From: Patescibacteria group bacterium
GTDB taxonomy: Bacteria > Patescibacteriota > Patescibacteriia > 2-01-FULL-39-33
Assembly (NCBI GenBank): GCA_041650895.1
Contig: JBAZKF010000001.1
Span: 359,156 to 423,155, forward strand
DNA length: 64,000 nt
Direction of reading: 5' to 3'
Shown here piece by piece: positions 1-36,395 of the stretch; the stretch's first letter is position 1, and each line of letters begins with the position of its first letter. A program made the position numbers and the translations under genes. The notes under the pieces were generated by a model, which ran no database searches, was not told the DNA's origin, and worked only from the letters and a program-made list of their open reading frames with translations.

Positions 1-3000
1 TGGCACACTTATTGGTTCCGGGATTGGAACAATGAGCGGAATCTTCACAATTCACAGCGCCACTCTCGCAAGAGCATGGCTCGGCGGTGATTTCGCAAAG
101 ATAAGTATAGTCCTTGATCGACTGCGCATAATTTTCGGCCAAATCAGCAGTGATACAATTATTATTGGAAGAAAAAGCCGCTATCGTATTACTGCAATTA
201 CTGGCGCTTCTACAAGTACTGCTATCAGCTTCATCCGCGCTATCGCATTGGCAAGACTTTAAACCACCGCCATAAGACGAATCATTAAGCGTAGCCAAAA
301 CGGAATACTCGCAAACTCTACCATTAGTATTGCCTTGCACCCAAGATTGCACTTCTTCTTGAGCTGGAGTGGTTACGCCTGTACCATCCGAAGTGGTAAT
401 CAGTCCATTGCCGGACGGAACGTAACAAATCGGCAAAGGAATAATGCCTAATGGCTTGGCGCAAACCAAGTTCTTCCACATACCGACTGACAAAACTCCG
501 CCGAACAGAGTATGGCTGGCCGTATCGCCGATAGCGATAAAAATGCCGTCAAATTGAAACTTATAAATAAAAGGATAGCGGAAAAGCGGCGACCAGGTCG
601 GACTAATATTGAATGAAGTGGCCTTAGTTTGTTTGGCATTGGTATCAAATTTTAACGATTCCATGCCGGATTCATTTACGCCTTCACCGAATAGGCCAAA
701 ATTACCCGTATACTGTGAGACGTCCAAAATCATGGTTTTTTTCTCTAAACAATAATACAAGGGATAACGTTCACTATAATAACTAGAGAAATCACTTAAA
801 GTTTCACCACGGATAGAATCAACCGGCCACCACTGCAAGCACTGTTGATTATTAGCCGGATCAGGCGTCAAACAATAGCCATACTGGCCATAAAAATAAT
901 TATTACCGTCATTATATTTGCAGGCCGGCGCATTCATACTGGGATAAACACGGCAAGTTCGATCAATATAACCGCTAGCGCTAGACTTGAGTAATGGTTT
1001 AAGATTGACGTTATCCCATAAAGTATAACCGCCGAGTTTAGAATTATCTATGCCTTTGCTTCCGTCGGGATTCATATTAAATAAGGCGAGCTGCACTCCA
1101 GAAACATTATCGCCCGTACGGAAATGCACGATCACTTGTTTCCAGGGCAAGCCGGTAGGGGTTTGCATTACCTCGCCCTTAACCCAGTCACCCTCGTAAA
1201 CACCGCCATCAACAGCGGCCAAATTAGGACGCGGTTGCCCCTTAGAATTTATAAACCGCAAGCGCAATTCCGCGTAAGGCAAACGGCCGGCAACGCCCGG
1301 ACCTTGCAAATCCTTGGTATGAACCCAGGCAGACAAGAAATAATCTTGATTGGGCAATATATCAACCGATTCAGAAATAACTCCCCAACCCGAGTTAATT
1401 TTCAAATATCCCACACCATCCTTGGCTTTTGCGCCATCACGACCAATAGTGGTATAACTAGCTTGCCAATTCTTATAAACAACATCGGGATTGCCGGCGG
1501 CGCAATCGGAGTTACTGGCGCAATAATAAACGGCCAAACGCCAGCCCAAAGGTTGAGTGGTAGCGCCGAAAGCCTCTTCAAAATTGCCATTAACCACATT
1601 GGACGATTGGCCGACTTGCGTCATAGCATCAAAAGAATAATACCCAACGCGAGAGAAGCCGGATTTATTGGCATCCAATGAAGGAGAATATTGATCGCTA
1701 CTAACAGCATCATTAGCCAGATAATTATTACAAATGCCATTGTCGCCCAAAGAATTACAGGCGCCAACCTCCAAACAGGAATCCTGATCGCTGAAAAAAT
1801 ACGGGGCTAAGGTGGATGATTGGCCCTCCTCTTTCTTTTCAAAAGTAGAGCAAGTCAGCCAATTGGCGCAAGCACGATTGGGTTGCGATTTTAAAATAAT
1901 ATTAGCGTCTTTAGGTTTGCCTGCTTCAGTCACAGCGGCCGGTGGAACCGAGCGGGATAAGCCATTAATACCTTGCGGATAATTATTATCCCGAGTCAGG
2001 CGACTGGAAAAAGACAATGAAGTAGTGGCGCTATTAATCAAATTACTGTAATCAAGCTGACTGCGGTCATTAAATAGAACACAACCCTTATGGTAATCAA
2101 CTTGGCCGTTACAATCACCGCTGCTAACCTTGGAACTTAAAATATAAGAAACGCTGGCTAATCCAACCTTATCCCTGACCAAATCTATTGATGACCCATC
2201 CTGAGTCTTGAAAGTTACACGGCAAGTCAATGACTTGGGATTATCCACAGCTAAATAAAGATAATGGCCAAGATTGTCGGAGAAACTATTGCTTACCCCC
2301 TGAACATCGCTACAAATTATATCGCCAACCTTTATATTATCGGACAAAACATACAGAATGTTTTTCTTAATGGACACATCAACACAGGTGTCCTGGCCTT
2401 CGCAACGTTGCGGAATAAGATTAGACGCCAAGTTTTCCAACGGATCAATGTATTCGCTACAACCGGATTGCTCAGTTGAGCACGCCCCGACCCAGCCACT
2501 ATAAGCCGGACTGGACGGTGCTTGCAAAGTCACTGCATTAATCGGGCCCAACGGCTGTAATTTGTCCGTTGCTGATTTATAACTTAAACCCAATGTTTGC
2601 TGATAAGTGGTGGGACAAGTCTCAACAGTGCCGGATTTAAACCATTTATCCAGGCCGTTGGAACTATCAGAGGAAGTGAATTGGCAAACTTTACCATGCG
2701 GATCCTTAAAGTAAATTAAGGTATTATTACCCGCCCACTCTTCACACCATAAATTCTCCGCCGAACATAAGTCAGTAGAATAACGATCCGGATCGTTTTT
2801 AACATAAATATCCCGATAACCAGTAATCTCATCCCACTTATCTATTAAGGGTAAGCCGTAGCGAGTACAGCCCTTATCCCCTTTAGCACAAGAATACTTG
2901 TCATAATTAACCAAATAGACCAGGGTATCGGTCGCCACAAAAATATCATCATGGTTAACGCTATTGGCGATGTTAAACGATTGCGCCTGAGGCGCACTGG

Positions 3001-6000
3001 AATTAAAGGTATCAATCAAAGCCTCGCAACCGGCCGCCTCCGGACGGCATAAAGAAGCAAAAGATCTTAAGTAAGACACTTTATTCTTACGATCCAGGTA
3101 ACCAGCGCAACCCAGCATCTCTCCAATAGAACAACGCCCAGACTGAGTATCTTGACAAACGCCTTCGGTCTTGGCCTTATTACCATCAGGATCATCTAAT
3201 TTATTATCGCAAGAAAGCGGAGTAAACCAGGAATTTTCGATGGCGTAAACTTGATTCGTAATTTCTTTAAGAATAATATTATCCAAATAAACAACCTGTC
3301 CGTTAGGCATAGAGAACTCCAAGTAATTGCCATCGCCCGGTTCCCAAGTTACAAATAGCGGTCCCAATTCATAACGTTTCCATTCCTCCGTTAATTGCGT
3401 CCGCGGATTAATCAAATTCTCCCCGAGTAAACGGCTGGCGGAAAAATAATTATTGCCGTTAGCGGCGGAATTATCATTCCAATTGATACCGCTCTTTTCA
3501 ACAAATCTAATATTATCAAGATAATAAGAAGCATTGCCTTTGGCCCAGAACGATAAAGTATAAGCTTTGTTCTTCTGAATTGTTATCGGGTAATGAATAG
3601 TAGGATTATTAACCTTATTAGACAGAGAATTACCGCCGGGGAAAGTCGATTCGGAAGAAATAAATAAGCCGTTTCTGCCGCCATTTGCGTCCTCCCACAA
3701 GTCCAAAGCAGTACTGCTGGCGGTAAAATTAACCACATTAATGGCGTTCTTAATATTATTACCTCGATTGCCGGTATAAGCACGACACCCCTGGGCGTTG
3801 GCCGGGCAAATTTTACCTTGTCCGGGGATGGCCATATAAATACATTCATTACTGCCGTTCCACCAACCACTATGGCTTTCGCAATTAGCCTTGGCCTCAG
3901 TAAATGAGGTTTCGGTCATGGTGCGGCGATACGGATGGCAATTATTGGAGACAGAAACGGTACGGGACAGTAAGCGATAATGGATATTGCCGTCTACATC
4001 GTATAATTCGCGGCAATCCGGATTGCTAACCATGTCATCCTTAGTACAAACGCCGAAATCATAACGACCGGCTTCTGCGCCATGGGTATTTGCGGAATCA
4101 TTACAAACAGCATTGCCCGAGGCGTTGTAAATCAAATTAGTGCAAGGAGCAGTGCCCTGGCCGACGCCGGCTGTTTCCGGATCACTGGCAACCTGTGATT
4201 TTTTCAAACTAAACGCTACCAACTGATAGCCGGTGATATCCGAACCCTCCCAAGTATAATAAGCTCCGTCATCAACTGATGGCTTTTGACAGGCTTGGAT
4301 TTGGCTATAGTATTCTTTTTGTTCTCCACCCTGTCCGGCAGTATCAAGGTTGGTAAACTCATCGCAACCGGCATAATTAGCGGAACAAGTCTTAAGTTTA
4401 CTGTCAGCAATAAATTGTCTGAAAGCTTGATTAATGAAACTGGTTTTCTCCTGGTTGTATAATTGATAACCGGCGCACTCCTTTGGGCAAGCATCGAAAT
4501 CCTGCGCCACGCCCGGTATTGACGGATCGCCATTAACGGGCCGATATAACTCACAGCCAACTTCTTGCGGCGTACAAACTCCGGCATAACGGGCGCAATT
4601 GGCATTTTTGTTTTTTAAGACGCTGGTTAACTCCTGTTGATTTTGCGGCCACTGCAAACCGGCAATATCCGGATAAGCGTCGTAACAGCTGAAATAGTCA
4701 GGGGCTTTCTTAAGATAAGCCACTTGTTCAACCGACCGAGCTGCCGGATTATAATCACTATAAATACTAGGATAAGTGGCATTGAAGGAAATCGCCTCAG
4801 TTTTGACATTATCAATAATCGCTTCTTGACCAGTTGCCCCAGTGGAAAACCACAGCTCCATCCTGGCTGCATTATCCGGTGCCTTAAACTTACAGAAGAA
4901 ACGACTAGAAGTCGCAAAAGAAGTAGGAGTGAACTTTAAGGCTAACGTCTGCGGGATGTTGCCATCTTTATCCTGAGCCCATTCGCAAGTCGCAGAAGAA
5001 GTGGCAACCGGCAAAACGGCCCCGGCTTTGGATTTGAATCTCAAGAAAGTTTCAATTAATGTCGCTTGATCGACAGAAATCTGATAACCATCAATAGCCA
5101 AAAAATAATACTGACCGGGAGTAACCTGGATCGTTTTATTGATATTGGCACTATCTAAGCCGCTTAAATAGCTGATTTTAGCTCTAGTGTTATCTGCCAA
5201 AATCAAATTGCTCCAATCATATAAAGTGCCGTCAAAACCGCCATTAATGACAACATTTCCGCCTAAATTTGATTTGGTGCGGATAAATTGGCTGCAACCG
5301 TCGCTCAAGGATGAGCAAGTCTGGGCATCACGATCAAAATACATCTCTGTCGCACCTTCGCGCGAGGAAACAAGAACCGACACGGCGCCGACGCCGCAAG
5401 CAGTACTGATAGGATAGAATTCAAAATCATCAAGATACAAATCAGCATAAACTCCGGCGGGATTACGGACTACCAGAATTATCTGCTCATTGTCGCCGGA
5501 ATTAAAATTAAGATTAGTTTCGCGCCAACCGGAAGAACCGCTGGTCAATTGCAGATTATTCAATAAGGAAGGCCACAAGGAACTATCTTGATCGAAAGAC
5601 GTAGCACCTTTACTGCCAGCCCGCACCTCCACATTAACACTGCCATTAATGGACCCTTTGTAATAGAACCTGACATTATAATTAGTGTTCTTCTCTACTG
5701 GTATGGCCGGTTCGTAACTGATCAGATCAGCCGGAGCATAAAGCGTCTTAATAAAAAGCGAAGCAACGCCACTGTGTTTCTCGGTGGTGACGCGAAGATG
5801 GCGATTATTATTATCAATGAACGCCAAAGTCCAGGAAGCGGCTTTCCACCCTTCCTGACTATTAAGCAATCCTTCCAAACCAAGGTTTGGCTTATTGGCT
5901 ACTTCGGCGGTATAAACGTCAGGGAATAATTTGGCATCATTACATAAACGCAACTGGCAGGACACGCCATTATCCGGAACATTACAAGAAGGATCGCGAG

Positions 6001-8251
6001 GAGCATAACTCGTCTGGTCTATAGCTTCTGAATATTGAAAACTGCAATAATTGCCTCCGGTGGTTTGATGAAAAACACAACCTTTGCCGGTAACATCCAA
6101 TTTGCACATATCCGAAGAACACGGCGAGGCTAAGCGCAAGCGGGAATTGGCGCTGACCTGGTGACCGGCCTGTATCCACCAATCCCTATCGCTTCTACTG
6201 AAAGTAATAACCTGATTGACGGCCTCGGGCGGAGTAAGTTGCGTACCACTACCCAGATTAGTCCAGGTCTGGCTGGAAGGATTATAATCTATGGCATACC
6301 AACGGCAACCAGCCACCTGCGCATTACAATTTCTAAAATCCAAAGTATTGGTTAAATAAGAGGAGGTACCGCCAGTACGCGAAGTATAGGTCTGACAGGA
6401 ATTAACTCTGGCCGGACAGGTTTTGCCTAAATCCCAAATGCGGCGCTCTTCATTGCAATAACCGTAAGCCAAGCAGGCGCCGTTTTCATCTTCTTGCAAA
6501 CATTGTTGCTCGTCAGAGCAGTATTCCAAACGGCCGATGGTTCCGCTTTGATCGTCTTTATTCAGATTTAAAGCGCCATACCCCTGGCGACGACAACTGG
6601 TTTCATACGCCTTAAGCGTCCAGTAGGGGTCAACCATGCCCTTAAAACTATTAGTGGTGCAACCGTTTTTGCCTAAACCCTCATAACAATTAATTAATTC
6701 ACCTAAAGTATATTCGCGATTACTATTAGAATTCCTGATAAGATTAGCGGCCTCTTCCCAACCCACCGGCACGATACGGTATTGACGTAAAACCAAAATA
6801 GAACGGTAAGGAATAGCTGTCTGTAAAGAATTTGACTGTTCTGATCGAGGCGAGAAAACACGATTCTTGATCTGATCAGGCAAATCAATCACATAAGTTT
6901 TGCTTTTAATCACTTGCGCCAAGGAACCATCAATAATACAATCCATTGGTCCGGGATTGGTCTTAGACGAATCATCGCAAGAAGAAAGTCCGACTATTAA
7001 ATCAACCTTCCCGCCTTGTTGACCTTGACTGCCGGAGATGGCATTATTGATTCTCTCTTCAGCTCCTTTAGTGCCTTCGGTTATTATCGGACTGGCCGAA
7101 GGATTAAACAAGGCAGTCAAAGCGCCGGAAAGTATGTTGGAACCTTGACTAGTCAAGGGATTGGAACTACCGCCGGAAGAACCGCCAGATGATGACTGTG
7201 TCAAAGAAAACAAGCCTTCTTTTAACAACCCCAATGATTCAGCCACAACTGTATCCATGAACTCAAATGGCACGGCCATGGCTGTTTCCGTCCAGGTAAT
7301 AGAATATTGGGAGTTACCCTTCTTCAACATAGCATCGGTCATCATGTCATGAAGCATGGTGCCAGGAGTAAGAATTTTACCGTTGAACGTCACCTTACTC
7401 AGCCAACCCTGATTGGTGCTGGCTTCATAGGTCTTAGACTTGACTTGCTGATTGACCGCCAAATCGCGCAAATCCAAAGCCAACAATGAAGCAGTAATGT
7501 CATTTTCCCCGGGCCGTAAAGCCAGAGTGTATTCCAAGGGGAAGGTAGGGTTAGTTACGGCCTCTTGCCAATTAGTCATGATCTCAGAAAAAGTACATCT
7601 GACGCGAGGAGCTGTTCGGCCCAGTTGAATATTGATCAACAACTGGACTTGCAAATCAGGCTGGCAAATATCCACGCCATAATGCTGACTAAAATTATCA
7701 ATAAAATCACCGAGAGCCGAGTCGGCGGCGTTAAGTAAATAAGCATTCCATCCCTCGGTAATATAAGCCGGTTTCTGACCCTTAAGCGCAGTAAAAGCAA
7801 TCTTGGTAGCTTCACGCGTAACACTTCTAAGTAAAGTATCCAACGCTTTAGAAGCGGAATTACTTAAGGCATTTAGAAACTTTTTCCATCTGTCTTGATT
7901 TTTTGCCTTTCTTACTTCCGCCTTTAAATCAGCTTCTATTTGTTGCCCCGTACTATTATCAGAAACATATTTATTGCAGACGGTTTGAGCTTCAGCCAAA
8001 GCGCTTAATTTTGCGCTACAATCATAAAAGCCACAAGGGATGGCGGTTGCCGCCTTTTTTAACGCTTCACACATAGCCAAAGCCTGTTTAGCGGGAAGTC
8101 CAGCTTCAGCCTGACTCAAGGCTGTCTTTGCTTCGCCTAGTTGGGTCTCAAAAGCCGTCGCCGGATCTTGAGCTGAAACGCGTAATGGACAAAAAAAGTA
8201 AAAACAACAAAAAATTACCCCCAATAAGATCATTGGGTTATAAAGCTTCAT
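1..8251 (-). CDS. Giant secreted/cell-surface protein, Cys-rich, more than 2,750 aa; 5' end in window and 3' end beyond the left edge (partial)
   Basis: The ATG is at 8249-8251 (reverse strand) and the N-terminus reads MKLYNPMILLGVIFCCFYFF..., a signal-peptide/TM-like stretch. The minus-strand frame with top position ≡1 mod 3 has no stop in several spot-checked segments (1-61, 1501-1560, 3001-3058, 4202-4231, 6002-6058, 7502-7558) or in a manual read-through. The ORF track lists no complete ORF longer than 130 aa across these 8.2 kb, as expected for an ORF whose stop lies outside the window. Plus-strand ORFs here are short and antisense. Confidence 0.65.
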   Translation of the reverse strand, partial: MKLYNPMILLGVIFCCFYFFCPLRVSAQDPATAFETQLGEAKTALSQAEAGLPAKQALAMCEALKKAATAIPCGFYDCSAKLSALAEAQTVCNKYVSDNSTGQQIEADLKAEVRKAKNQDRWKKFLNALSNSASKALDTLLRSVTREATKIAFTALKGQKPAYITEGWNAYLLNAADSALGDFIDNFSQHYGVDICQPDLQVQLLINIQLGRTAPRVRCTFSEIMTNWQEAVTNPTFPLEYTLALRPGENDITASLLALDLRDLAVNQQVKSKTYEASTNQGWLSKVTFNGKILTPGTMLHDMMTDAMLKKGNSQYSITWTETAMAVPFEFMDTVVAESLGLLKEGLFSLTQSSSGGSSGGSSNPLTSQGSNILSGALTALFNPSASPIITEGTKGAEERINNAISGSQGQQGGKVDLIVGLSSCDDSSKTNPGPMDCIIDGSLAQVIKSKTYVIDLPDQIKNRVFSPRSEQSNSLQTAIPYRSILVLRQYRIVPVGWEEAANLIRNSNSNREYTLGELINCYEGLGKNGCTTNSFKGMVDPYWTLKAYETSCRRQGYGALNLNKDDQSGTIGRLEYCSDEQQCLQEDENGACLAYGYCNEERRIWDLGKTCPARVNSCQTYTSRTGGTSSYLTNTLDFRNCNAQVAGCRWYAIDYNPSSQTWTNLGSGTQLTPPEAVNQVITFSRSDRDWWIQAGHQVSANSRLRLASPCSSDMCKLDVTGKGCVFHQTTGGNYCSFQYSEAIDQTSYAPRDPSCNVPDNGVSCQLRLCNDAKLFPDVYTAEVANKPNLGLEGLLNSQEGWKAASWTLAFIDNNNRHLRVTTEKHSGVASLFIKTLYAPADLISYEPAIPVEKNTNYNVRFYYKGSINGSVNVEVRAGSKGATSFDQDSSLWPSLLNNLQLTSGSSGWRETNLNFNSGDNEQIILVVRNPAGVYADLYLDDFEFYPISTACGVGAVSVLVSSREGATEMYFDRDAQTCSSLSDGCSQFIRTKSNLGGNVVINGGFDGTLYDWSNLILADNTRAKISYLSGLDSANINKTIQVTPGQYYFLAIDGYQISVDQATLIETFLRFKSKAGAVLPVATSSATCEWAQDKDGNIPQTLALKFTPTSFATSSRFFCKFKAPDNAARMELWFSTGATGQEAIIDNVKTEAISFNATYPSIYSDYNPAARSVEQVAYLKKAPDYFSCYDAYPDIAGLQWPQNQQELTSVLKNKNANCARYAGVCTPQEVGCELYRPVNGDPSIPGVAQDFDACPKECAGYQLYNQEKTSFINQAFRQFIADSKLKTCSANYAGCDEFTNLDTAGQGGEQKEYYSQIQACQKPSVDDGAYYTWEGSDITGYQLVAFSLKKSQVASDPETAGVGQGTAPCTNLIYNASGNAVCNDSANTHGAEAGRYDFGVCTKDDMVSNPDCRELYDVDGNIHYRLLSRTVSVSNNCHPYRRTMTETSFTEAKANCESHSGWWNGSNECIYMAIPGQGKICPANAQGCRAYTGNRGNNIKNAINVVNFTASSTALDLWEDANGGRNGLFISSESTFPGGNSLSNKVNNPTIHYPITIQKNKAYTLSFWAKGNASYYLDNIRFVEKSGINWNDNSAANGNNYFSASRLLGENLINPRTQLTEEWKRYELGPLFVTWEPGDGNYLEFSMPNGQVVYLDNIILKEITNQVYAIENSWFTPLSCDNKLDDPDGNKAKTEGVCQDTQSGRCSIGEMLGCAGYLDRKNKVSYLRSFASLCRPEAAGCEALIDTFNSSAPQAQSFNIANSVNHDDIFVATDTLVYLVNYDKYSCAKGDKGCTRYGLPLIDKWDEITGYRDIYVKNDPDRYSTDLCSAENLWCEEWAGNNTLIYFKDPHGKVCQFTSSDSSNGLDKWFKSGTVETCPTTYQQTLGLSYKSATDKLQPLGPINAVTLQAPSSPAYSGWVGACSTEQSGCSEYIDPLENLASNLIPQRCEGQDTCVDVSIKKNILYVLSDNIKVGDIICSDVQGVSNSFSDNLGHYLYLAVDNPKSLTCRVTFKTQDGSSIDLVRDKVGLASVSYILSSKVSSGDCNGQVDYHKGCVLFNDRSQLDYSNLINSATTSLSFSSRLTRDNNYPQGINGLSRSVPPAAVTEAGKPKDANIILKSQPNRACANWLTCSTFEKKEEGQSSTLAPYFFSDQDSCLEVGACNSLGDNGICNNYLANDAVSSDQYSPSLDANKSGFSRVGYYSFDAMTQVGQSSNVVNGNFEEAFGATTQPLGWRLAVYYCASNSDCAAGNPDVVYKNWQASYTTIGRDGAKAKDGVGYLKINSGWGVISESVDILPNQDYFLSAWVHTKDLQGPGVAGRLPYAELRLRFINSKGQPRPNLAAVDGGVYEGDWVKGEVMQTPTGLPWKQVIVHFRTGDNVSGVQLALFNMNPDGSKGIDNSKLGGYTLWDNVNLKPLLKSSASGYIDRTCRVYPSMNAPACKYNDGNNYFYGQYGYCLTPDPANNQQCLQWWPVDSIRGETLSDFSSYYSERYPLYYCLEKKTMILDVSQYTGNFGLFGEGVNESGMESLKFDTNAKQTKATSFNISPTWSPLFRYPFIYKFQFDGIFIAIGDTASHTLFGGVLSVGMWKNLVCAKPLGIIPLPICYVPSGNGLITTSDGTGVTTPAQEEVQSWVQGNTNGRVCEYSVLATLNDSSYGGGLKSCQCDSADEADSSTCRSASNCSNTIAAFSSNNNCITADLAENYAQSIKDYTYLCEITAEPCSCESGAVNCEDSAHCSNPGTNKCA

Positions 8252-8287
8252 TTGTTTATACTTATTCAAAAACATAATCTACAATAT

Positions 8288-9334
8288 TTAAGTGGAGGTT
8301 GCCGTTGAAGAAACCACGCGCTTCTCTAATTCGCTAATAAATATCTGCTTCAGTTCATCATCGCCGGCGGCGTTTAAAATAGTGGAATCGCCGCCGGATT
8401 TAATCAGAATTTGTCTAATCTGCGCGCCGGACAACTCCTTAAAATCAGCCATAGTGGTAACACCGAATGATTCTAAATTAACATTAGCCCAACCGCTCGT
8501 AGCGGCGTCCGTCGTTTCTCCGATCAAGTCCGTTTGATCAATCAAATCATCTGTAGCACCCAAATCACCGCCAATTGCATAAGAAGAAAAAATAGTCGGG
8601 TCAATCAAGCCATATTGCTGTAATTGTTGCGCCATAGTCGGGTTATTCTGCAAATACTGGGCAAAAATCTGCATTAATTCATCGTCAGTGGTATCGGCTA
8701 AATCTTGATCACTAATGCCGCTGTCTTTTAACATTTGCCTGATAACGGACGGAGTCAAAGCCGAATAATTACTGGTCTGGCTAACAGTCGCTGTCGGAGT
8801 AGTCAAATCGGTGAGCTCAGAAGATAATGATCCGCTGACTGAAGGGCTGGCAGTAGAATCCATAGTGGGCAAACCAGTACATTTCTGGCCTTGCGGACAA
8901 TTCGGATCGGTGCCTCTATCCACTTCCATTTTATCATCCAAACCGTCAGAATCGCTATCTTTGAGGTAGGGACTGGTATGATAAACGCTTAACTCAAGAT
9001 TGTCGGCCAAACCGTCAGCATCCGTATCACGGGTCATCATGTCTCTAATCTGCGCCTGTTGCAAAGCCAGCCTTTCCGCGCGGGATTTGTTGCCGGCTTT
9101 AACTATATCCTGAAAAGGATTTTGACTGGCTAAAAAAAACTGCCAAAAACCAAAAACAAGGGCCATTAACCCGATTACTGCGATCAAAACTGTATGCATT
9201 TTTTCCTTGCCTGTAAGTGACTGGCTGATGCCTGAATCTTTGTTGGAGGCTATACTATTGCCTACTTCCAAATTTTTCAAATAATCAGGTTCTTTATCTT
9301 CACTTACCGGCTGGAATTTTTCACTACCTTCCAT
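8288..9334 (-). CDS. Membrane-anchored protein with thrombospondin-type-3-like Ca-binding Asp repeats (DTDADGLAD, DSDSDGLDD), probably co-transcribed with the giant protein gene
   Basis: 348-aa ORF with one TM helix (VLIAVIGLMALVFGFWQFFLA), DxDxDG motifs and a Ser/Thr-rich C-terminus. It ends 37 bp upstream of the giant ORF start. Confidence 0.6.
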   Translation of the reverse strand: MEGSEKFQPVSEDKEPDYLKNLEVGNSIASNKDSGISQSLTGKEKMHTVLIAVIGLMALVFGFWQFFLASQNPFQDIVKAGNKSRAERLALQQAQIRDMMTRDTDADGLADNLELSVYHTSPYLKDSDSDGLDDKMEVDRGTDPNCPQGQKCTGLPTMDSTASPSVSGSLSSELTDLTTPTATVSQTSNYSALTPSVIRQMLKDSGISDQDLADTTDDELMQIFAQYLQNNPTMAQQLQQYGLIDPTIFSSYAIGGDLGATDDLIDQTDLIGETTDAATSGWANVNLESFGVTTMADFKELSGAQIRQILIKSGGDSTILNAAGDDELKQIFISELEKRVVSSTATST

Positions 9335-9490
9335 TTAGAGGTGTGGATAAGTTATGTATTAATTATACCACAAAATCGTTTTCGTAAAAAGATTTATATT
9401 AGAACATTTAAATAATGAATAAATCAAGGAAACAAAAAAACAATAATTACCTATTCTGTTACCTTATCGCCTAATTATTGTCTTATTTTA

Positions 9491-10291
9491 TTATTTGATT
9501 GTTTCCGCCAATTTCACCCAATCTTCTACGCCCAAGTCTTGCGCGCGGATCTTCTCATCCATTCCTAACCCGATCAAAATCGAACGAACCTGCTTTTCCG
9601 GCAGATGCAATCCGCCGGACAAATTATTCTTCATTTGTTTTCTTTTGGCGGCAAAACCGATACGCGCCAAACGGAAAACCTGCTTGGCTCCAGCCGGCGA
9701 AGGTTGCTTTAACTTTATCCGGACTACCGCCGAATCCACCGCCGGAGCGGGCCAAAAACATCCGCGACCGACTTCAAACAATATCTGCGGCTCACCAAAA
9801 AGCTGGGCCGACAAACTCAACAAAGACATTTCTCCCGGCTTAGCCATCAGCCTTTTGGCCACTTCCTTCTGTAACATCAAAATCATTTCTGTTGGCTTTG
9901 GTCCGGTTTCCAAGAATAATTTTAGAAACGCCGCAGTAATGGAATACGGCAAGTTGGCAACAATGCGATAAGAAAAATCCGTAAATCCCTCAGCCGCCAA
10001 ATTAACCCGCAAAATATCACCGGCAATTAATTTGATCTTAGGAAAATTGGTTTTAATATAAGAGATTATTCTTTCGTCTAATTCCACTGCCACTAAATTG
10101 TCAGTGGCCTTAGCCAGCTCTTCGGTCAATACGCCCAATCCCGGTCCGACTTCCAAGATTTTTTCTCCTGGTTCAACGCCGGCGGCGACCATAATTTTTT
10201 TGACAATATTGGCATCAATTAAAAAATTCTGCCCCTTGGACTTGGACGGCCTGATATCATACTGCTGGCATAAGGATTTAACATCAATCAT
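9491..10291 (-). CDS. rsmA: 16S rRNA (adenine1518/1519-N6)-dimethyltransferase RsmA/KsgA
   Basis: Carries the GQNFL motif and an EVGPGLGVLTEEL SAM-binding motif; 266 aa. Confidence 0.85.
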   Translation of the reverse strand: MIDVKSLCQQYDIRPSKSKGQNFLIDANIVKKIMVAAGVEPGEKILEVGPGLGVLTEELAKATDNLVAVELDERIISYIKTNFPKIKLIAGDILRVNLAAEGFTDFSYRIVANLPYSITAAFLKLFLETGPKPTEMILMLQKEVAKRLMAKPGEMSLLSLSAQLFGEPQILFEVGRGCFWPAPAVDSAVVRIKLKQPSPAGAKQVFRLARIGFAAKRKQMKNNLSGGLHLPEKQVRSILIGLGMDEKIRAQDLGVEDWVKLAETIK

Positions 10292-16018: not shown

Positions 16019-18205
16019 ATGCCTCATAAACTTCTCATCGTTGAGTCCCCGGCCAAAGCCAAAACCATCGCCAAATACCTGAATAATGAATATACGGTCA
16101 AGGCATCGGTCGGCCACATTCGCGATCTGCCGAAATCAAACAAAAACGCCATTGATATCAAGGGCGGCTTCATACCGCATTACGAGATTGTCCCCGGCAA
16201 GGAAAAAATTGTCAGCGAATTGAAAAGTTTGGCGCATAAAGCCGACGAAGTGGTATTGGCCACCGATCCGGACCGTGAAGGAGAGGCGATCGCCTGGCAC
16301 ATCAAAGAAGCTATCGGCTTAAAGCACCCCAAAAGAATCGTCTTTCATGAAATTACCAAAGAGGCCGTGCAAGAAGCCATCAAGCATCCGCGCGAGATTG
16401 ATGAAAATCTAAAAGAAGCGCAGGAAGCGCGCCGCGTCCTTGATCGCTTGTTCGGTTACGATCTAAGCGCCTTAATCTGGCAGAAAGTCCGCTACGGGCT
16501 ATCCGCCGGTCGCGTCCAATCCCCGGCTTTGCGTATTCTAACGGAAAAAGAAAAGGAAATCCGCGCTTTCGTGCCGGAAACTTATTTTGTTTTGGAAGCC
16601 GATTTTGAAACGCCCCAAAATGATAAAATAAAATTCAAATGCAGTAAACAGCCCAAAACAGCCGAGGACTCGGAAGACATCCTGACCAAAGCCAAAAAAG
16701 CCGATTGGCAAGTCAAGGCCGTAGAAGAAAACGAGGCCACGCGTCGCGCCAAAGCGCCGTTTACCACCTCAACCTTACAGCAATCTTCCTCTTCACGCCT
16801 GGGTTATTCGCCCAGCCAGACTATGCGTTTGGCGCAAAAACTCTATGAAGCCGGGCACATTACTTACATGCGTACCGATTCCACCACTTTGAGCGGCCAG
16901 GCCATGAAAGAAATCAACAGTTTAATTACAGATAAATTCGGCAAAGAATATGCCAAACCGCAAAAATTCTTAACCAAAAGCAAGAACGCGCAAGAGGCGC
17001 ATGAAGCTGTCCGCCCGACGCATTTCTCTACCGTTGAAGCCGGACATACGCCGCAAGAGAAGCGACTCTACCAATTGATTTGGCAAAGGACTGTCGCCTG
17101 CCAAATGGCCGACGCCAAAACCCTGAAAACCAAAGCCATCGCCATCGTTAAAAACGAAACGGAAATGCCGGAATTTGTCGCCGAAGGCAGCCGCATCACT
17201 TTTGCCGGCTGGCTCAAGGCCGACCCCAAAGCCCGTGGCGAAGAAGTGGAATTGCCCAAAATGACGGCGGGAGAAAAATTAAAACTGCTGGATATTCTGG
17301 CCGAAGAAAAACAGACCGAACCGCCGCACCGCTACACCGAAGCCGGCCTGGTCAAAGAACTGGAAAAACGCGGCATCGGCCGTCCTTCCACTTATGCCTC
17401 TATTATTGACACCGTTATTAAGCGCGGTTACGTCACCAAAGAACAAAAATCACTCAAAGTAACAGAGATCGGCGAGTTGGTGGATGACTTTTTGGAAAAA
17501 AACTTCGGCGACTACATCTCTGACACCTTTACCGCGGAAATGGAAAACCAACTGGATGAAATCGCCCGAGGCCAAGACACTTATATCAAAACCCTGAAAG
17601 ATTTTTACAGTCCCTTTACTGAAACGGTCAAAAGCAAAAAATCCATCCCTAAAATCACTGATTTAGGCGATGCGCCGGCTGATATCAAATGCCCGGAGTG
17701 CGGAGCAAAAATGAAAATAAAACTGGGACGCGGCGGCAAATTCTACTCTTGCGAACGCTTCCCCGATTGTCAAGGCGCTTTGACCATGGAGGGCAAGGTC
17801 TTGGAACCGCCCAAAGACACAGGTGAAATCTGTCCTAAATGCGGCAAGGGCAAACTGATTGAACGCGAAGGCAAATACGGCAAATTCATTGCCTGCTCCA
17901 ATTATCCCAAATGCAAATTCATCAAAAAAGACGAGGTGGCCGAGGCGGAACGCATGAAGGCCGCCGATACCGGCGTGCAATGCCCGGAATGCAAAAAGGG
18001 CACGATGATAGAAAAACGCGGTCGCTTCGGCGTCTTCTACGGTTGCAGTAATTATCCGGAATGCAAAAATATCGTCAAAGCCAAACCCACGGGCAAGCTC
18101 TGCCCGCAATGCGGCAAGCTGATGATGGAAGGAACCAAAACTATTCCGGAAAGATGTTCAGACAAAAACTGCCCTAACCATAATCCGCAAAAACTCAAAA
18201 AATAA
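16019..18205 (+). CDS. topA: DNA topoisomerase I, with repeated C-terminal zinc-ribbon domains
   Basis: Has a Toprim domain N-terminally and four CxxC…CxxC zinc-ribbon repeats at the C-terminus; 728 aa. Confidence 0.9.
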   Translation: MPHKLLIVESPAKAKTIAKYLNNEYTVKASVGHIRDLPKSNKNAIDIKGGFIPHYEIVPGKEKIVSELKSLAHKADEVVLATDPDREGEAIAWHIKEAIGLKHPKRIVFHEITKEAVQEAIKHPREIDENLKEAQEARRVLDRLFGYDLSALIWQKVRYGLSAGRVQSPALRILTEKEKEIRAFVPETYFVLEADFETPQNDKIKFKCSKQPKTAEDSEDILTKAKKADWQVKAVEENEATRRAKAPFTTSTLQQSSSSRLGYSPSQTMRLAQKLYEAGHITYMRTDSTTLSGQAMKEINSLITDKFGKEYAKPQKFLTKSKNAQEAHEAVRPTHFSTVEAGHTPQEKRLYQLIWQRTVACQMADAKTLKTKAIAIVKNETEMPEFVAEGSRITFAGWLKADPKARGEEVELPKMTAGEKLKLLDILAEEKQTEPPHRYTEAGLVKELEKRGIGRPSTYASIIDTVIKRGYVTKEQKSLKVTEIGELVDDFLEKNFGDYISDTFTAEMENQLDEIARGQDTYIKTLKDFYSPFTETVKSKKSIPKITDLGDAPADIKCPECGAKMKIKLGRGGKFYSCERFPDCQGALTMEGKVLEPPKDTGEICPKCGKGKLIEREGKYGKFIACSNYPKCKFIKKDEVAEAERMKAADTGVQCPECKKGTMIEKRGRFGVFYGCSNYPECKNIVKAKPTGKLCPQCGKLMMEGTKTIPERCSDKNCPNHNPQKLKK

Positions 18206-18243
18206 TATTTGCTACGTAGCATGTTACGTAACATGCAGATAAC

Positions 18244-18271
18244 AAAATCCCGCCGGCCGGCGGGATTTTTT
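18244..18271. terminator. Bidirectional intrinsic terminator (perfect 13-bp palindrome aaaatcccgccgg/ccggcgggatttt followed by a T-run)
   Basis: Lies between the convergent topA (+) and the GC-rich minus-strand gene at 18390–19188. Confidence 0.7.
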
Positions 18272-18389
18272 GAAATTAAAAAAGACGCAAAGATCGACCG
18301 AAGCCGCTCTTTGCGCCTTAATAATGAGCGTCGTTCCTGCGAAATCAGGGACCAAAATCCAAAAATCAGATCAATGACCGAGCTCGACA

Positions 18390-19188
18390 TTACCCGATGA
18401 GCAGAAGCCCGCTGGAAAAATCGCAAAACGTGTAAGCCAAGTCGTCGATGCGACCGAGGACGAGACAGTCATCGCGGGCCTCGAAGTAGAGCGAATACGC
18501 TGGCGACTGTAAAGTATTGGACGCGCAATCATTGCCAGGGACACGATGGTCGCGAGCCATTACATCAGGATAGCCGATAATGGCGTGGCCGTGAATGATG
18601 ACGTCCGGCAGGACGAACCTCAGGCCTTGCGGTAGCGTCTCCATCTGCCTGCGAGCATCGAGGATGGACCACGACCGCAAAGCATCCGGGAAATACGCCG
18701 CCACGACCGGACCGGCGTCCATGGCTTCGAGGAACAATCTGAAGTTGATCTCGGGCACATAGTTGACCTGATGTTTGACCTGTCTAGCTATATTGAACGG
18801 CCGTCCTGCGAATTGGCCTTCATAGGCAGACCTGACGCCAGCGAGCACTGTGTTTTCCAGATACGTACCCAAGTCAATCTTGATCGCGCCAGCAGCAAAA
18901 ACGAGTGGCAAGCACGGACCGTTGAGAATATTACACACGTCCTCACGGCCGCTGACGGTTTCGATGATCGCCATGAAGCGAAAGTAGAAATCATTGAGTT
19001 GGGGCAGTTCGGAACCCGCTGGCAAATGCCTCTTGAACTGACTCAGGGCCTGGGCGAAACGCGACTTGCCGAAAAACTGCGGTACAACAAATCGGAAATC
19101 CCAATTGGGCGTGTTGGCCTGATTATTGAGGTCATTATAAGGAATACGGACTCCGTTTTCGTCAAACAAACTGGGTTGCTTGGTCATG
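18390..19188 (-). CDS. Hypothetical protein with anomalous GC (about 58–60%), likely horizontally acquired
   Basis: Track ORF 18390..19367. The true start is probably the ATG at 19186-19188 (MTKQPSLFDENG…), preceded by the RBS AGGAGA and lying downstream of a mapped promoter. GC of a 60-nt sample is 60%, against about 45% locally. Confidence 0.55.
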
Positions 19189-19337
19189 ATCGTTCTCCTA
19201 TTTACCTCGCCAATTTCTTGACGTAGGCCCGGTGTTAGTTTGGGGCCATTCCCCCTTCTTTTTTGGATTGTTTTATAGGTACTGCCACCACTAAGCCGAC
19301 TGGGCCAAGCGGATTGCTTCCAATTTATGGAATATAT

Positions 19338-19366
19338 AATTGTAGCATATCTATTACAATTTGTCA
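19338..19366 (-). promoter_or_regulatory. Sigma70-type promoter: TTGACA-17nt-TACAAT (minus strand)
   Basis: The reverse complement of 19338-19366 reads TTGACAaattgtaatagatatgcTACAAT. It is about 140 nt upstream of the predicted start, implying a long 5' UTR. Confidence 0.55.
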
Positions 19367-19479
19367 ATAGTTATAACAAAAAAGTCTAATTTTAGATATT
19401 TATTTATAAAAAATAAACAAAAAATATAACACTTAATAGACAGCCGACTGTTTATTGCTTATAATAAGCTTACACCAAT

Positions 19480-22773: not shown

Positions 22774-22845
<72 letters not shown>

Positions 22846-22934
22846 CTAACCAATCACTGATTAATAATTACTAATTACGAATATAATTATTTTAATTCGT
22901 AATTTGAAATCCGTAATTTGTAATTGACATTTGT

Positions 22935-23007
22935 TGCGGGGGGCGGATTCGAACCGCCGACCTCTTGGTTATGAGCCAAGCGAGCTGCCGGACTGCTCTA
23001 CCCCGCG
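22935..23007 (-). tRNA. tRNA with CAU anticodon and a C1·A72 mismatch (initiator-like tRNA-fMet)
   Basis: Reverse complement reads CGCGGGGTAGAGCAGTCCGGCAGCTCGCTTGGCTCATAACCAAGAGGTCGGCGGTTCGAATCCGCCCCCCGCA. The acceptor stem 5' C pairs against 3' A, as in bacterial initiator tRNA. Confidence 0.7.
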
Positions 23008-23052: not shown

Positions 23053-23134
23053 TGCCCGAGGAGAGACTCGAACTCTCACATATTGCTATACACGATTTTG
23101 AGTCGTGCGCGTCTACCAGTTCCGCCACTCGGGC
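23053..23134 (-). tRNA. tRNA-Leu (CAA), type II with long variable arm
   Basis: Reverse complement reads GCCCGAGTGGCGGAACTGGTAGACGCGCACGACTCAAAATCGTGTATAGCAATATGTGAGAGTTCGAGTCTCTCCTCGGGCA. Confidence 0.8.
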
Positions 23135-36007: not shown

Positions 36008-36395
36008 GGGGATGTTTTGCTTTGATAGAGATAATGTTTTCCTATTAGCAAACCGAGCATGGCGGCAAACTCGTTAATCCGTCGCCACAGGCAAAAATGC
36101 CAAAAACATCTTAGCTAAAGTCCAATCTGCTTTTAGCAGCCTGGCTTTGGCTCCTGTTCTCGCTTAATATCGAGAACCATCGCCGCGCCCATTCCCGGTA
36201 AGCGCTAAGCGGTGTTATATTATCGGGATCGCCACTGACGTCGCCAGAGCGCCCTTGGTCAAACTTTTCTGGATCGCTTAAGGATTTTTTGCCGCTTTTT
36301 CAGTCCTTAAGTCAGAATATAAAACGGCTAAGTTTGTATCACTTTAGGGGATAATTTATTTCTAGACAGGGGCTCATTACCCCTCATCTCCACAC
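36008..36395 (+). ncRNA. ssrA: Candidate tmRNA (ssrA) downstream of smpB
   Basis: The 5' GGGGATG pairs with the 3' CATCTCC, followed by a discriminator A (acceptor stem). An internal ORF …AKNILAKVQSAFSSLALAPVLA ends with TAA inside the loop of the hairpin gttctcg-cttaatat-cgagaac. A T-arm-like GGGG-ctcatta-CCCC lies just before the 3' end. The length, about 388 nt, is typical. The region is a 575-nt non-coding gap. Confidence 0.45.

Follow-up and report, generated by a model that had tools for sequence, protein, structure and literature searches.

A giant cysteine-rich protein and a thrombospondin type 3-like membrane protein head a type IV secretion operon in Patescibacteria

Introduction

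Patescibacteria account for a large share of bacterial diversity, and those that have been cultivated are attached to host cells. The T4SS (type IV secretion system) described in this phylum comprises VirB4, TrsD, PrgI/VirB3 and VirB6, is MPF-FATA-like (MPF, mating pair formation) and mostly lacks a relaxase; ksgA is abundant near its virB4 gene, comF, recG and radA are typical there in class ABY1, and adhesins, PrgB among them, went undetected in the phylum (Quiñonero-Coronel et al., 2025; PMC12102498). In the one species tested, Southlakia epibionticum, the system proved essential (Wang et al., 2023; PMC10633639), and its role in Patescibacteria has been called "completely unknown" (PMC11665869). 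Here we describe a locus from a stretch of 64,000 nucleotides (nt) of a Patescibacteria group bacterium (contig JBAZKF010000001.1, positions 359,156 to 423,155; hereafter the window), in which the gene for a giant, Cys-rich protein is preceded by a gene for a membrane protein with thrombospondin type 3 (TSP3)-like motifs, the partner.

A sequence-only reading of the window had proposed a giant surface protein as a candidate for host attachment in a candidate phyla radiation (CPR) bacterium, and the source genome does belong to Patescibacteria. The two genes front a conserved T4SS array that lies beyond the window, so that what calls for explanation is no longer a generic giant surface protein but a surface module linked to the T4SS.

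Results

Linkage of the two-gene module to a T4SS operon

Both genes are located at the left edge of the window:

1..8251, minus strand: open reading frame (ORF) of the giant, codons 1-2,750 of 3,852 (NCBI start at 8251; stop codon 3,308 nt past the left edge)
8288..9334, minus strand: partner gene, 348 amino acids (aa), NCBI MFA5124542.1, WC473_01780; single-pass membrane protein with TSP3-type motifs

They are co-directional, with a spacing of 12-36 nt depending on the start codon of the giant. In the source genome the TSP3-like gene (WC473_01780), the giant gene (WC473_01775) and a gene for a VirB6-like protein (WC473_01770, MFA5124540.1) are consecutive. The VirB6-like gene (1,029 aa) begins 63 nt after the stop codon of the giant and is followed by genes for proteins of 341 aa and 468 aa, PrgI (147 aa), a TraC-like/TrsD protein (227 aa, with a precomputed match to PF26593 TraC-like), VirB4 (635 aa, with a P-loop_TraG/AAA_10 match), a 189-aa protein, a ComFC-like protein and RecG. 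On the Logan contig, which has a 100% match to the window, the whole array from the giant to RecG is on a single strand with gaps of 7-80 nt, and no terminator-like site was found in the gap between the giant and the VirB6-like gene. Neither a relaxase nor a coupling protein was found near the giant-bearing cluster, and with rsmA/ksgA, comF and recG around it the cluster corresponds to the T4SS locus published for ABY1 (PMC12102498). The array that follows the giant is the known T4SS of Patescibacteria.

In the locus of an ortholog with 89% identity, VirB4 scored 105 bits against PF19044 (P-loop_TraG; cutoff 25.8) and PrgI 30.4 bits (cutoff 27), while the VirB6-like protein scored 19 bits against TrbL/VirB6, for which the cutoff is 25.9. 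TrbL/VirB6 was the only recurrent Pfam family in the 1,079-aa VirB6-like family, with 6 of 14 members matching at E ≤ 0.01 and a best value of 3.4e-5; some further homologs carry precomputed PF04610/PF19590 assignments, and a comparison with PDB sequences gave no match. The VirB6-like protein is polytopic in the membrane, and its C-terminal part is long and hydrophilic. Its ortholog in Candidatus Buchananbacteria (P0178, 1,078 aa) is named "MFS transporter" by NCBI, which is probably a misannotation.

To assess how general this arrangement is, we scanned one genome per species with a signature block of the giant (aa 2428-2505); the C-terminal block at aa 3170-3400 was too divergent to yield a scan pattern. 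We obtained 80 loci, spanning Buchanan-, Uhr-, Komeili- and Falkowbacteria (class ABY1) as well as Parcubacteria/Paceibacterota. Neighboring genes were typed with hidden Markov models, and the following counts cover only loci with sufficient flank:

TSP3-like gene directly upstream of the giant, same strand: 66 of 66 eligible loci
rsmA upstream of the giant: 62 of 62 eligible loci
VirB6-like gene downstream, same strand: 57 of 59 (within 100 nt in 33, within 1.5 kb in 50)
PrgI gene near the giant: 27 of 44 eligible loci
TrsD gene near the giant: 22 of 35 eligible loci
VirB4 gene near the giant: 14 of 27 eligible loci

For PrgI, TrsD and VirB4 the counts are constrained by gene insertions and by the 10-kb length of the flank, and the order PrgI-TrsD-VirB4 held in every locus where the flank reaches. 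The loci of homologs with 26-89% identity run in the order rsmA, TSP3-like, giant, a protein of ~1,080-1,240 aa, one or two unknown genes, PrgI, TraC-like and VirB4-type ATPase. The linkage was also assessed in reverse, by a metagenome scan with an alignment of the VirB6-like protein: a giant-family ORF was present upstream of the VirB6-like gene in 44 of the 57 loci with 1.5 kb or more of sequence on that side, and in 34 of the 39 with 5 kb or more. The two-gene module is tightly linked to the T4SS operon in both directions, the source genome included.

In the five loci that lack a giant, the VirB6-like gene and those that follow it are retained, with PrgI/TrsD/VirB4 seen in four of them. The TSP3-like/giant pair therefore acts like an accessory front end of the operon that varies with lineage, as would be expected of a contact module. 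Upstream of the giant-less operons (L099, 5808-6470; L121, L124, L125 and L135) we observed small ORFs of 180-220 aa, one of them with 5% Cys, which may be a different, minimal front-end module.

Some individual loci depart from the common arrangement. In L007 (19567-29567), from a distant relative, the genes after the giant encode a peptidase S9, a YcaO/nitroreductase fusion and a seryl-tRNA synthetase; T4SS genes are absent there and only rsmA, the TSP3-like gene and the giant are kept. A Peptidase_M23 protein with TSP_3 repeats is encoded ~9 kb downstream of the giant in the same locus. In L006, an opposite-strand gene with a Fib_succ_major domain (17856-18926, minus strand) lies between the giant and the VirB6-like gene, and a DsbA/thioredoxin-like gene, of interest given the ~3% Cys of the giant, is found ~5 kb upstream of the giant. 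About 30 species-representative records of metagenome-assembled genomes titled "uncultured Gammaproteobacteria bacterium" (TPA assemblies, e.g., CAZLFP010000003.1 and CAYVUR010000001.1; loci L017, L021-L025, L027, L029 and about 20 more) carry the typical Patescibacteria locus rsmA-TSP3-like-giant-VirB6-like-T4SS, and their titles look wrong.

The giant gene and its family

Translation of the window revealed no stop codon across the 2,750 codons of the minus-strand frame from 8251 to 1. One base is spare at position 1, and the ORF therefore runs off the window, which is also the reason for its absence from the program-made ORF list. The complete protein (NCBI MFA5124541.1, WC473_01775) has 3,852 aa, is 100% identical to the window translation and is labelled "hypothetical protein"; its contig, of 957,791 bp, is from a Patescibacteria group bacterium related to Buchananbacteria. 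The window holds the N-terminal 71% of the giant, and the 1,102 residues (3,308 nt) outside the left edge were read from the continuation on the Logan contig. The uninterrupted frame from 8251 to the left edge and the length above 2,750 aa with continuation beyond the window, both claimed by the sequence-only reading, were thus borne out, as was the richness in Cys, Gly, Asn, Ser and Thr: the full protein contains 9.6% S, 8.4% G, 7.4% N, 6.1% T and 3.45% C (133 Cys).

An alternative in-frame ATG is present at 8275, eight codons upstream (MFLNKYKQ-), and is used by other gene callers, giving 3,860 aa instead of the 3,852 of NCBI. With a start at this position (8252-8275), the n-region of the signal peptide would be positively charged, and the start would lie 12 nt after the stop codon of the partner.

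A HMMER scan of 1.84 billion representative proteins with aa 30-700 of the giant as query returned 1,087 proteins at E ≤ 1e-3, of which 474 had E ≤ 1e-30. Among the best 150 of the 1,087, lengths were nearly all 2,300-3,900 aa with an N-terminal match, and the shorter ones resemble fragments at contig ends. Where the source databases give the homologs a name, it is "hypothetical" or "carbohydrate binding domain-containing". In the species-representative scan, the stop-to-stop frames of complete giants (n = 62), which are slightly longer than the proteins, were 1,640-3,885 aa with a median of 3,066. The 31 aligned homologs are collinear over aa ~100-2500 and again in blocks at ~2900-3000 and ~3200-3400, and are thus an orthologous family and not a loose set of repeat proteins. 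Because these 31 close homologs and the ~1,087 representative ones share size and collinear architecture, the giant ORF is not an artefact. Cys content across the family is 2.5-4.7%, with dozens of invariant, paired Cys positions in the alignment of 31 homologs. The family is uncharacterised and widespread.

Domain architecture of the giant

The following features were delineated in the part of the giant that lies within the window, all on the minus strand:

8171..8251, minus strand: predicted signal peptide, aa 1-27 (Kyte-Doolittle peak at aa 1-19; cleavage site between VSA and QD inferred by eye)
6998..8170, minus strand: conserved N-terminal helical region, aa 28-418 (long helices in AlphaFold2 models; column conservation)
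6605..6997, minus strand: small α/β domain, aa 419-549 (predicted local distance difference test, pLDDT, of 85-93 in the 41-sequence model)
5900..6604, minus strand: first Cys-rich segment, aa 550-784 (invariant columns; structure prediction of low confidence)
5387..5899, minus strand: predicted β-sandwich B1, aa 785-955 (Pfam CBM_4_9 overlapping Endotoxin_C; confident β-sandwich model)
4727..5269, minus strand: predicted β-sandwich B2, aa 995-1175 (confident model; hhalign to B1 97%, E 2e-11)
3770..4726, minus strand: second Cys-rich segment, aa 1176-1494 (column conservation)
3227..3769, minus strand: predicted β-sandwich B3, aa 1495-1675 (profile-profile homology to B1 and B2, 97%, E ~1e-10 to 1e-11)
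1625..3226, minus strand: third Cys-rich segment, aa 1676-2209 (column conservation, motif list)
977..1624, minus strand: predicted β-sandwich B4, aa 2210-2425 (hhalign to B1 and B2, 97%, E ~1e-10)
692..976, minus strand: conserved Cys block, aa 2426-2520 (CRxYP…C…YGYCL..DP.N…CLQWWPVD…PLYYC)
1..691, minus strand: poorly conserved region, aa 2521-2750 (occupancy and identity profile)

The N-terminus, MKLYNPMILLGVIFCCFYFFCPLRVSA followed by QD, has a hydrophobic core and a VSA motif which, read by eye, are typical of a Sec signal peptide; this agrees with the N-terminal hydrophobic signal noticed in the sequence-only reading. Essentially all complete family members have such a hydrophobic segment with an AxA-like end. 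The helical region that follows contains the near-invariant residues G158, P161, D177, G181, C196, C219 and P296, and yielded no match in Pfam, among PDB sequences or in fold comparison. In the α/β domain we found a C425/C438 pair and invariant R492, G497 and W498, and structural comparison of this domain gave no significant match.

Two AlphaFold2 models were obtained, one of aa 30-1180 (27 sequences, pLDDT 56) and one of aa 30-700 (41 sequences, pLDDT 61). Their consensus consists of a helical N-terminal region of ~400 aa, the α/β domain at 419-549 and confident β-sandwiches at ~789-949 and ~1039-1159. Within the helical region pLDDT is 75-88 at ~aa 30-140 and low at ~aa 160-415. The only confident parts of the models are the first ~110 residues, the α/β domain and the β-sandwiches.

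B1 matched PF02018 (CBM_4_9; CBM, carbohydrate-binding module) with 36.2 bits, or 34.2 bits in the full-length scan (cutoff 25.9), and PF03944 (Endotoxin_C) with 30.2 bits (cutoff 21), the two matches overlapping at aa 820-948. These were the only Pfam matches of the full protein at E ≤ 1; NCBIfam and PDB sequences gave none. When the N-terminal profile was compared with PDB, CBM16 alone was found, through the first β-sandwich. Foldseek matched the modelled sandwiches to CBM16, CBM22, CBM4-2 and a porphyran-binding CBM (TM-scores to target of 0.6-0.76), and also to Cry domain III. B2-B4 were tied to B1 solely by profile-profile homology (hhalign) and not by a Pfam score. By these sequence and model comparisons, the giant is predicted to contain four lectin-like β-sandwiches of CBM4/9/16/22 type that are homologous to each other. 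Of the domain types that the sequence-only reading had raised, the lectin-like one was found, in the form of these four modules, and no Ig-like (immunoglobulin-like) or β-helix repeats were detected. Membership in the Cry/Vip3 toxins was rejected, as Endotoxin_N (domain I) and Endotoxin_M (domain II) had no match and only Endotoxin_C, the CBM-like domain III, was matched.

The Cys residues are concentrated in conserved patterns. CX6C occurs 16 times in the giant, compared to 4.6 ± 2.1 times in 2,000 shuffles. The first Cys-rich segment has nine invariant Cys at 553-649, including the CX6C pairs 612/619 and 642/649, and no other stretch of the family is as well conserved. An invariant CX6C pair (979/986) precedes B2. 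The second segment, with invariant or near-invariant pairs such as 1226/1233, 1289/1296 and 1482/1489, is also among the best conserved (mean identity of 43-54% per 100-aa window), and the third has the CX6C pairs 1735/1742, 1788/1795, 1829/1836 and 1924/1931 as well as a pair at 2128/2134. The Cys block at aa 2426-2520 has a mean column identity of 60% among 18 sequences, and the scan pattern derived from it recovered 84 relatives in species-representative genomes. The Cys-rich segments are probably rigidified by disulfides. The possibility that these linkers are duplicated units was rejected, as the top hhalign probability was 51%, a weak similarity between the second and third segments.

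Past the window, conserved blocks occur at aa ~2900-3000 and 3200-3400, and the tail (3400-3852) is Cys-rich and lineage-specific, the last ~450 aa being found only in the source lineage and, in part, in homolog P0010. A hydrophobic stretch was observed around aa 2843 (Kyte-Doolittle 1.67), within the poorly conserved ~2790-2900. A membrane anchor in this region, considered as a candidate, is unsupported since the stretch, though hydrophobic, is poorly conserved.

The TSP3-type membrane partner

The following features belong to the partner gene and its upstream region:

9128..9193, minus strand: transmembrane (TM) helix of the partner, aa 48-69 (hydrophobic stretch TVLIAVIGLMALVFGFWQFFLA, at the same position in 7 of 7 orthologs)
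8879..9028, minus strand: two TSP3-type motifs, DTDADGLADNLE and DSDSDGLDDKME, then DPNCPQGQKC, aa 103-152 (ortholog alignment)
9362..9370, minus strand: candidate extended -10 element TGgTATAAT (read from sequence, 27 nt upstream of the partner ATG)
9491..10291, minus strand: rsmA/ksgA, 16S rRNA dimethyltransferase (Pfam RrnaAD; context, outside the two-gene module)

The seven syntenic orthologs of the partner (214-348 aa) have a short N-terminal tail, one TM helix and a DP.C..G..C Cys pair. One TM helix and two motifs are what underlies the membrane-anchored, co-directional upstream gene with TSP3-like DxDxDG repeats that the sequence-only reading had described. The Ca²⁺-loop motif DxDxDGxxDxxE occurs twice, and none of its acidic positions varies among the seven orthologs, which share an invariant DTDxDGLxDxxE and DxDxDxxxDxxE. 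Invariant residues in this set are D103, D105, D107, G108, D111, E114, D126, D128, D130, D134, E137, C146 and C152. Judging from these motifs, the partner probably binds Ca²⁺. Against PF18884 (TSP3_bac) it scored 22.2 bits, under the cutoff of 25, and an 84%-identical ortholog scored 28.2 bits. NCBIfam weakly aligned just the DxDxDG motifs to CglD and MtsD of Myxococcus. Most of the seven orthologs also contain two copies of a helical segment of the form "…IRQxL…DDELKQxF". The candidate TGgTATAAT sits in the 156-nt gap between rsmA and the partner and is absent from the list of a two-hexamer promoter scan.

Remaining content of the window

The other genes of the window are ordinary housekeeping genes of a small genome, including rsmA, femAB, der, pth, dprA, topA, relA, parAB, recA, ftsK, rpoBC and ftsH. 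The only Rfam matches in the window were a tmRNA gene and three tRNA genes; they are listed here with one further ORF:

36008-36395, plus strand: tmRNA gene (109 bits)
22774-22845, 22934-23007 and 23053-23134, minus strand: three tRNA genes, next to parA
18390-19367, minus strand: 325-aa ORF between topA and relA, with no Pfam match

At the position of the 325-aa ORF, related contigs have a 265-aa gene called on the opposite strand, and the coding strand is ambiguous.

Discussion

On balance, and by a modest degree, we favor the reading that the giant and its partner constitute an accessory host-contact (adhesin) module of the T4SS. The TSP3-type partner and the giant form a two-gene module at the head of the chromosomal T4SS operon in ABY1-type Patescibacteria. 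The giant, with its conserved N-terminal domain and four lectin-like sandwiches set between Cys-rich segments, would be exported by Sec and held at the cell surface, for which the membrane partner and/or the VirB6-like protein are candidate anchors. From there it may reach out and bind glycans of the host cell envelope, and it could supply the cell-to-cell contact that the T4SS needs, as PrgB-type adhesins do for Gram-positive conjugative T4SSs. The ORF, its architecture, its family and the gene linkage are observed, and for the two proteins we infer surface location, disulfides, binding of Ca²⁺ and of glycans, anchoring and coupling to the T4SS. In favor of this reading are the linkage of the two genes to the T4SS genes in the source genome and across lineages, the T4SS identity of the neighbors, the conserved signal peptide together with paired Cys positions and four CBM-like sandwiches, the retention of the VirB6-like gene and its followers where the giant is lacking, and the vacancy left by the adhesins that went undetected for this system (PMC12102498).

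Several observations weigh against this reading. The functional evidence consists entirely of gene context, and within that context the VirB6 assignment is built on sub-threshold Pfam scores. The C-terminus of the giant shows neither a TM segment nor a sortase motif, that is, no retention signal. The overall confidence of the structure models is low (pLDDT 56 and 61), and the N-terminal ~650 aa, the best conserved part of the protein, have no recognisable fold or family; a key domain of the giant is therefore uninterpreted. With respect to linkage, 5 of 39 related T4SS loci are without a giant, and the giant locus L007 and 2 of 59 others are without a VirB6-like gene nearby. In addition, the housekeeping gene rsmA is equally tightly linked, being the next gene upstream of the TSP3-like gene in 62 of 62 loci, and gene order in this clade is therefore stable for reasons that are not necessarily functional.

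Such stability is central to an alternative in which the giant is a stand-alone surface or envelope protein (an adhesin, a glycan scavenger or a component of a cell coat) that works with its TSP3-like partner independently of the T4SS, the adjacency being due to the stable gene order of an origin-proximal region. The locking of rsmA to the block would be expected in this case, and ksgA, comF and recG are commonly near virB4 in the published survey (PMC12102498). The giant-less T4SS operons (5 of 39) and the giant locus with no T4SS genes within 10 kb also fit, and CPR bacteria have giant surface proteins for which no T4SS is invoked (PMC8080830). However, the giant is on the same strand as the VirB6-like gene, with a gap of 63 nt and no terminator before it; the TSP3-like/giant/VirB6-like triad is kept at 26-40% identity while the genes beyond rsmA vary; and linkage is high both ways (57 of 59 and 34 of 39). 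We consider independence from the T4SS to be unlikely, albeit the most serious of the competing explanations.

A different possibility gives the giant a structural role instead of that of an accessory adhesin: as a stalk or conduit outside the cell it would bear load within the T4SS itself and, in these lineages, take the place of the VirB2/VirB5 pilus. Its gene directly precedes that of the channel protein VirB6-like, the N-terminal domain shows the high conservation expected of a docking interface, and no pilin gene is annotated in the inspected loci (which were not the subject of a dedicated VirB2 search), while Saccharimonadia and Microgenomatia carry VirB2 arrays (PMC12102498). Against this, related T4SS operons lack the giant (5 of 39); a Sec signal peptide and lectin-like modules are typical of adhesins, and we found nothing pointing to oligomerisation or a lumen. 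A structural role of this kind seems to us quite improbable. Equally improbable is a host-attacking toxin resembling Vip3 or the three-domain Cry proteins, perhaps deployed alongside the T4SS, whose helical N-terminus would insert into or breach the host membrane while CBM-like domains target glycans of the host surface; the N-terminal model had no significant structural match to toxin domains.

A more speculative proposal can also be made. In pilin-less Patescibacteria lineages, the partner and the giant might together be the extracellular organelle of the T4SS, a fibre stabilised by Ca²⁺ and disulfides that stands on an extended VirB6, bridges to the host envelope and perhaps guides or forms the transfer path, replacing the VirB2/VirB5 pilus. 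This proposal is doubtful as it stands; if true, it would be a T4SS architecture not seen elsewhere.

Comparison with known systems

Likeness to the described Patescibacteria T4SS concerns the genes after the giant (VirB4, TrsD, PrgI/VirB3 and the VirB6-like protein, with no relaxase or coupling protein nearby). What differs is the head of the cluster, as the published papers on this system do not mention a Cys-rich protein of ~3,000 aa or a TSP3-type membrane protein there. The text and available supplements of PMC12102498 contain no mention of CBM_4_9, TSP3 or a very large neighbor, and nothing relevant turned up in the searched literature on any giant, Cys-rich or thrombospondin-type protein tied to the Patescibacteria T4SS. 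The module proposed here, which would be an adhesin-like surface component joined to a secretion system, is not described in the searched literature. The saccharibacterial T4SS has arrays of VirB2-like pilins, whereas none were annotated in the giant loci examined, in which no dedicated search was made. Extended VirB6 proteins (PMC12857230) resemble the VirB6-like neighbor and not the giant, and do so mostly with sub-cutoff scores.

Among giant proteins, those of CPR bacteria such as Vampirococcus lugosii (PMC8080830) and of Omnitrophota (bioRxiv 10.1101/2023.11.21.568195) are likewise very large predicted envelope proteins, from putative epibionts or predators, with a proposed role in host or prey contact, and the giant genes of Omnitrophota are also preceded by secretion-system genes and located next to secretion or pilus systems. 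Both differ from the giant in family and domains, and the family described here is collinear and orthologous with a fixed place in a T4SS operon. The giant is also far smaller than the giant genes of the Omnitrophota preprint.

At the level of domains, the likeness to CBM4/9, CBM16, CBM22 and Cry domain III is given by the score of B1 above the CBM_4_9 cutoff and by the modelling of B1 and B2 as β-jelly rolls. Unlike in CBMs, there is no attached glycoside hydrolase, and the modules are embedded between Cys-rich segments without known relatives. This analysis thereby draws attention to the N-terminal region and the CX6C-rich linkers as two conserved domains for which relatives are not known. 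The partner shares DxDxDGxxDxxE motifs, of which it has two, with CglD and MtsD of Myxococcus (PF18884), but it is a small (214-348 aa) single-pass protein with two repeats that scores ~22 bits, compared to full-length cutoffs of 400 and 800.

A presumed functional parallel is given by PrgB, the aggregation substance of pCF10, and other surface adhesins of Gram-positive conjugative T4SSs. Membership of the giant in the PrgB family was rejected: a C-terminal LPxTG is absent, and GbpC, antigen I/II-type and Ig-like domains had no Pfam or NCBIfam match at E ≤ 1. The few LPxT[GAS] matches in the giants fall within a conserved "QLPLTSY" motif of the β-sandwiches. The giant resembles PrgB in its predicted Sec signal peptide, in its place in a T4SS operon and in a presumed role in cell-cell contact. 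It differs in having no sequence or domain homology to PrgB, in being ~3x larger, in its Cys richness and its CBM-like sandwiches, and in having a dedicated TSP3-type membrane partner. The giant family offers a concrete candidate for the part that this essential but enigmatic T4SS is missing, the one that makes contact with the host.

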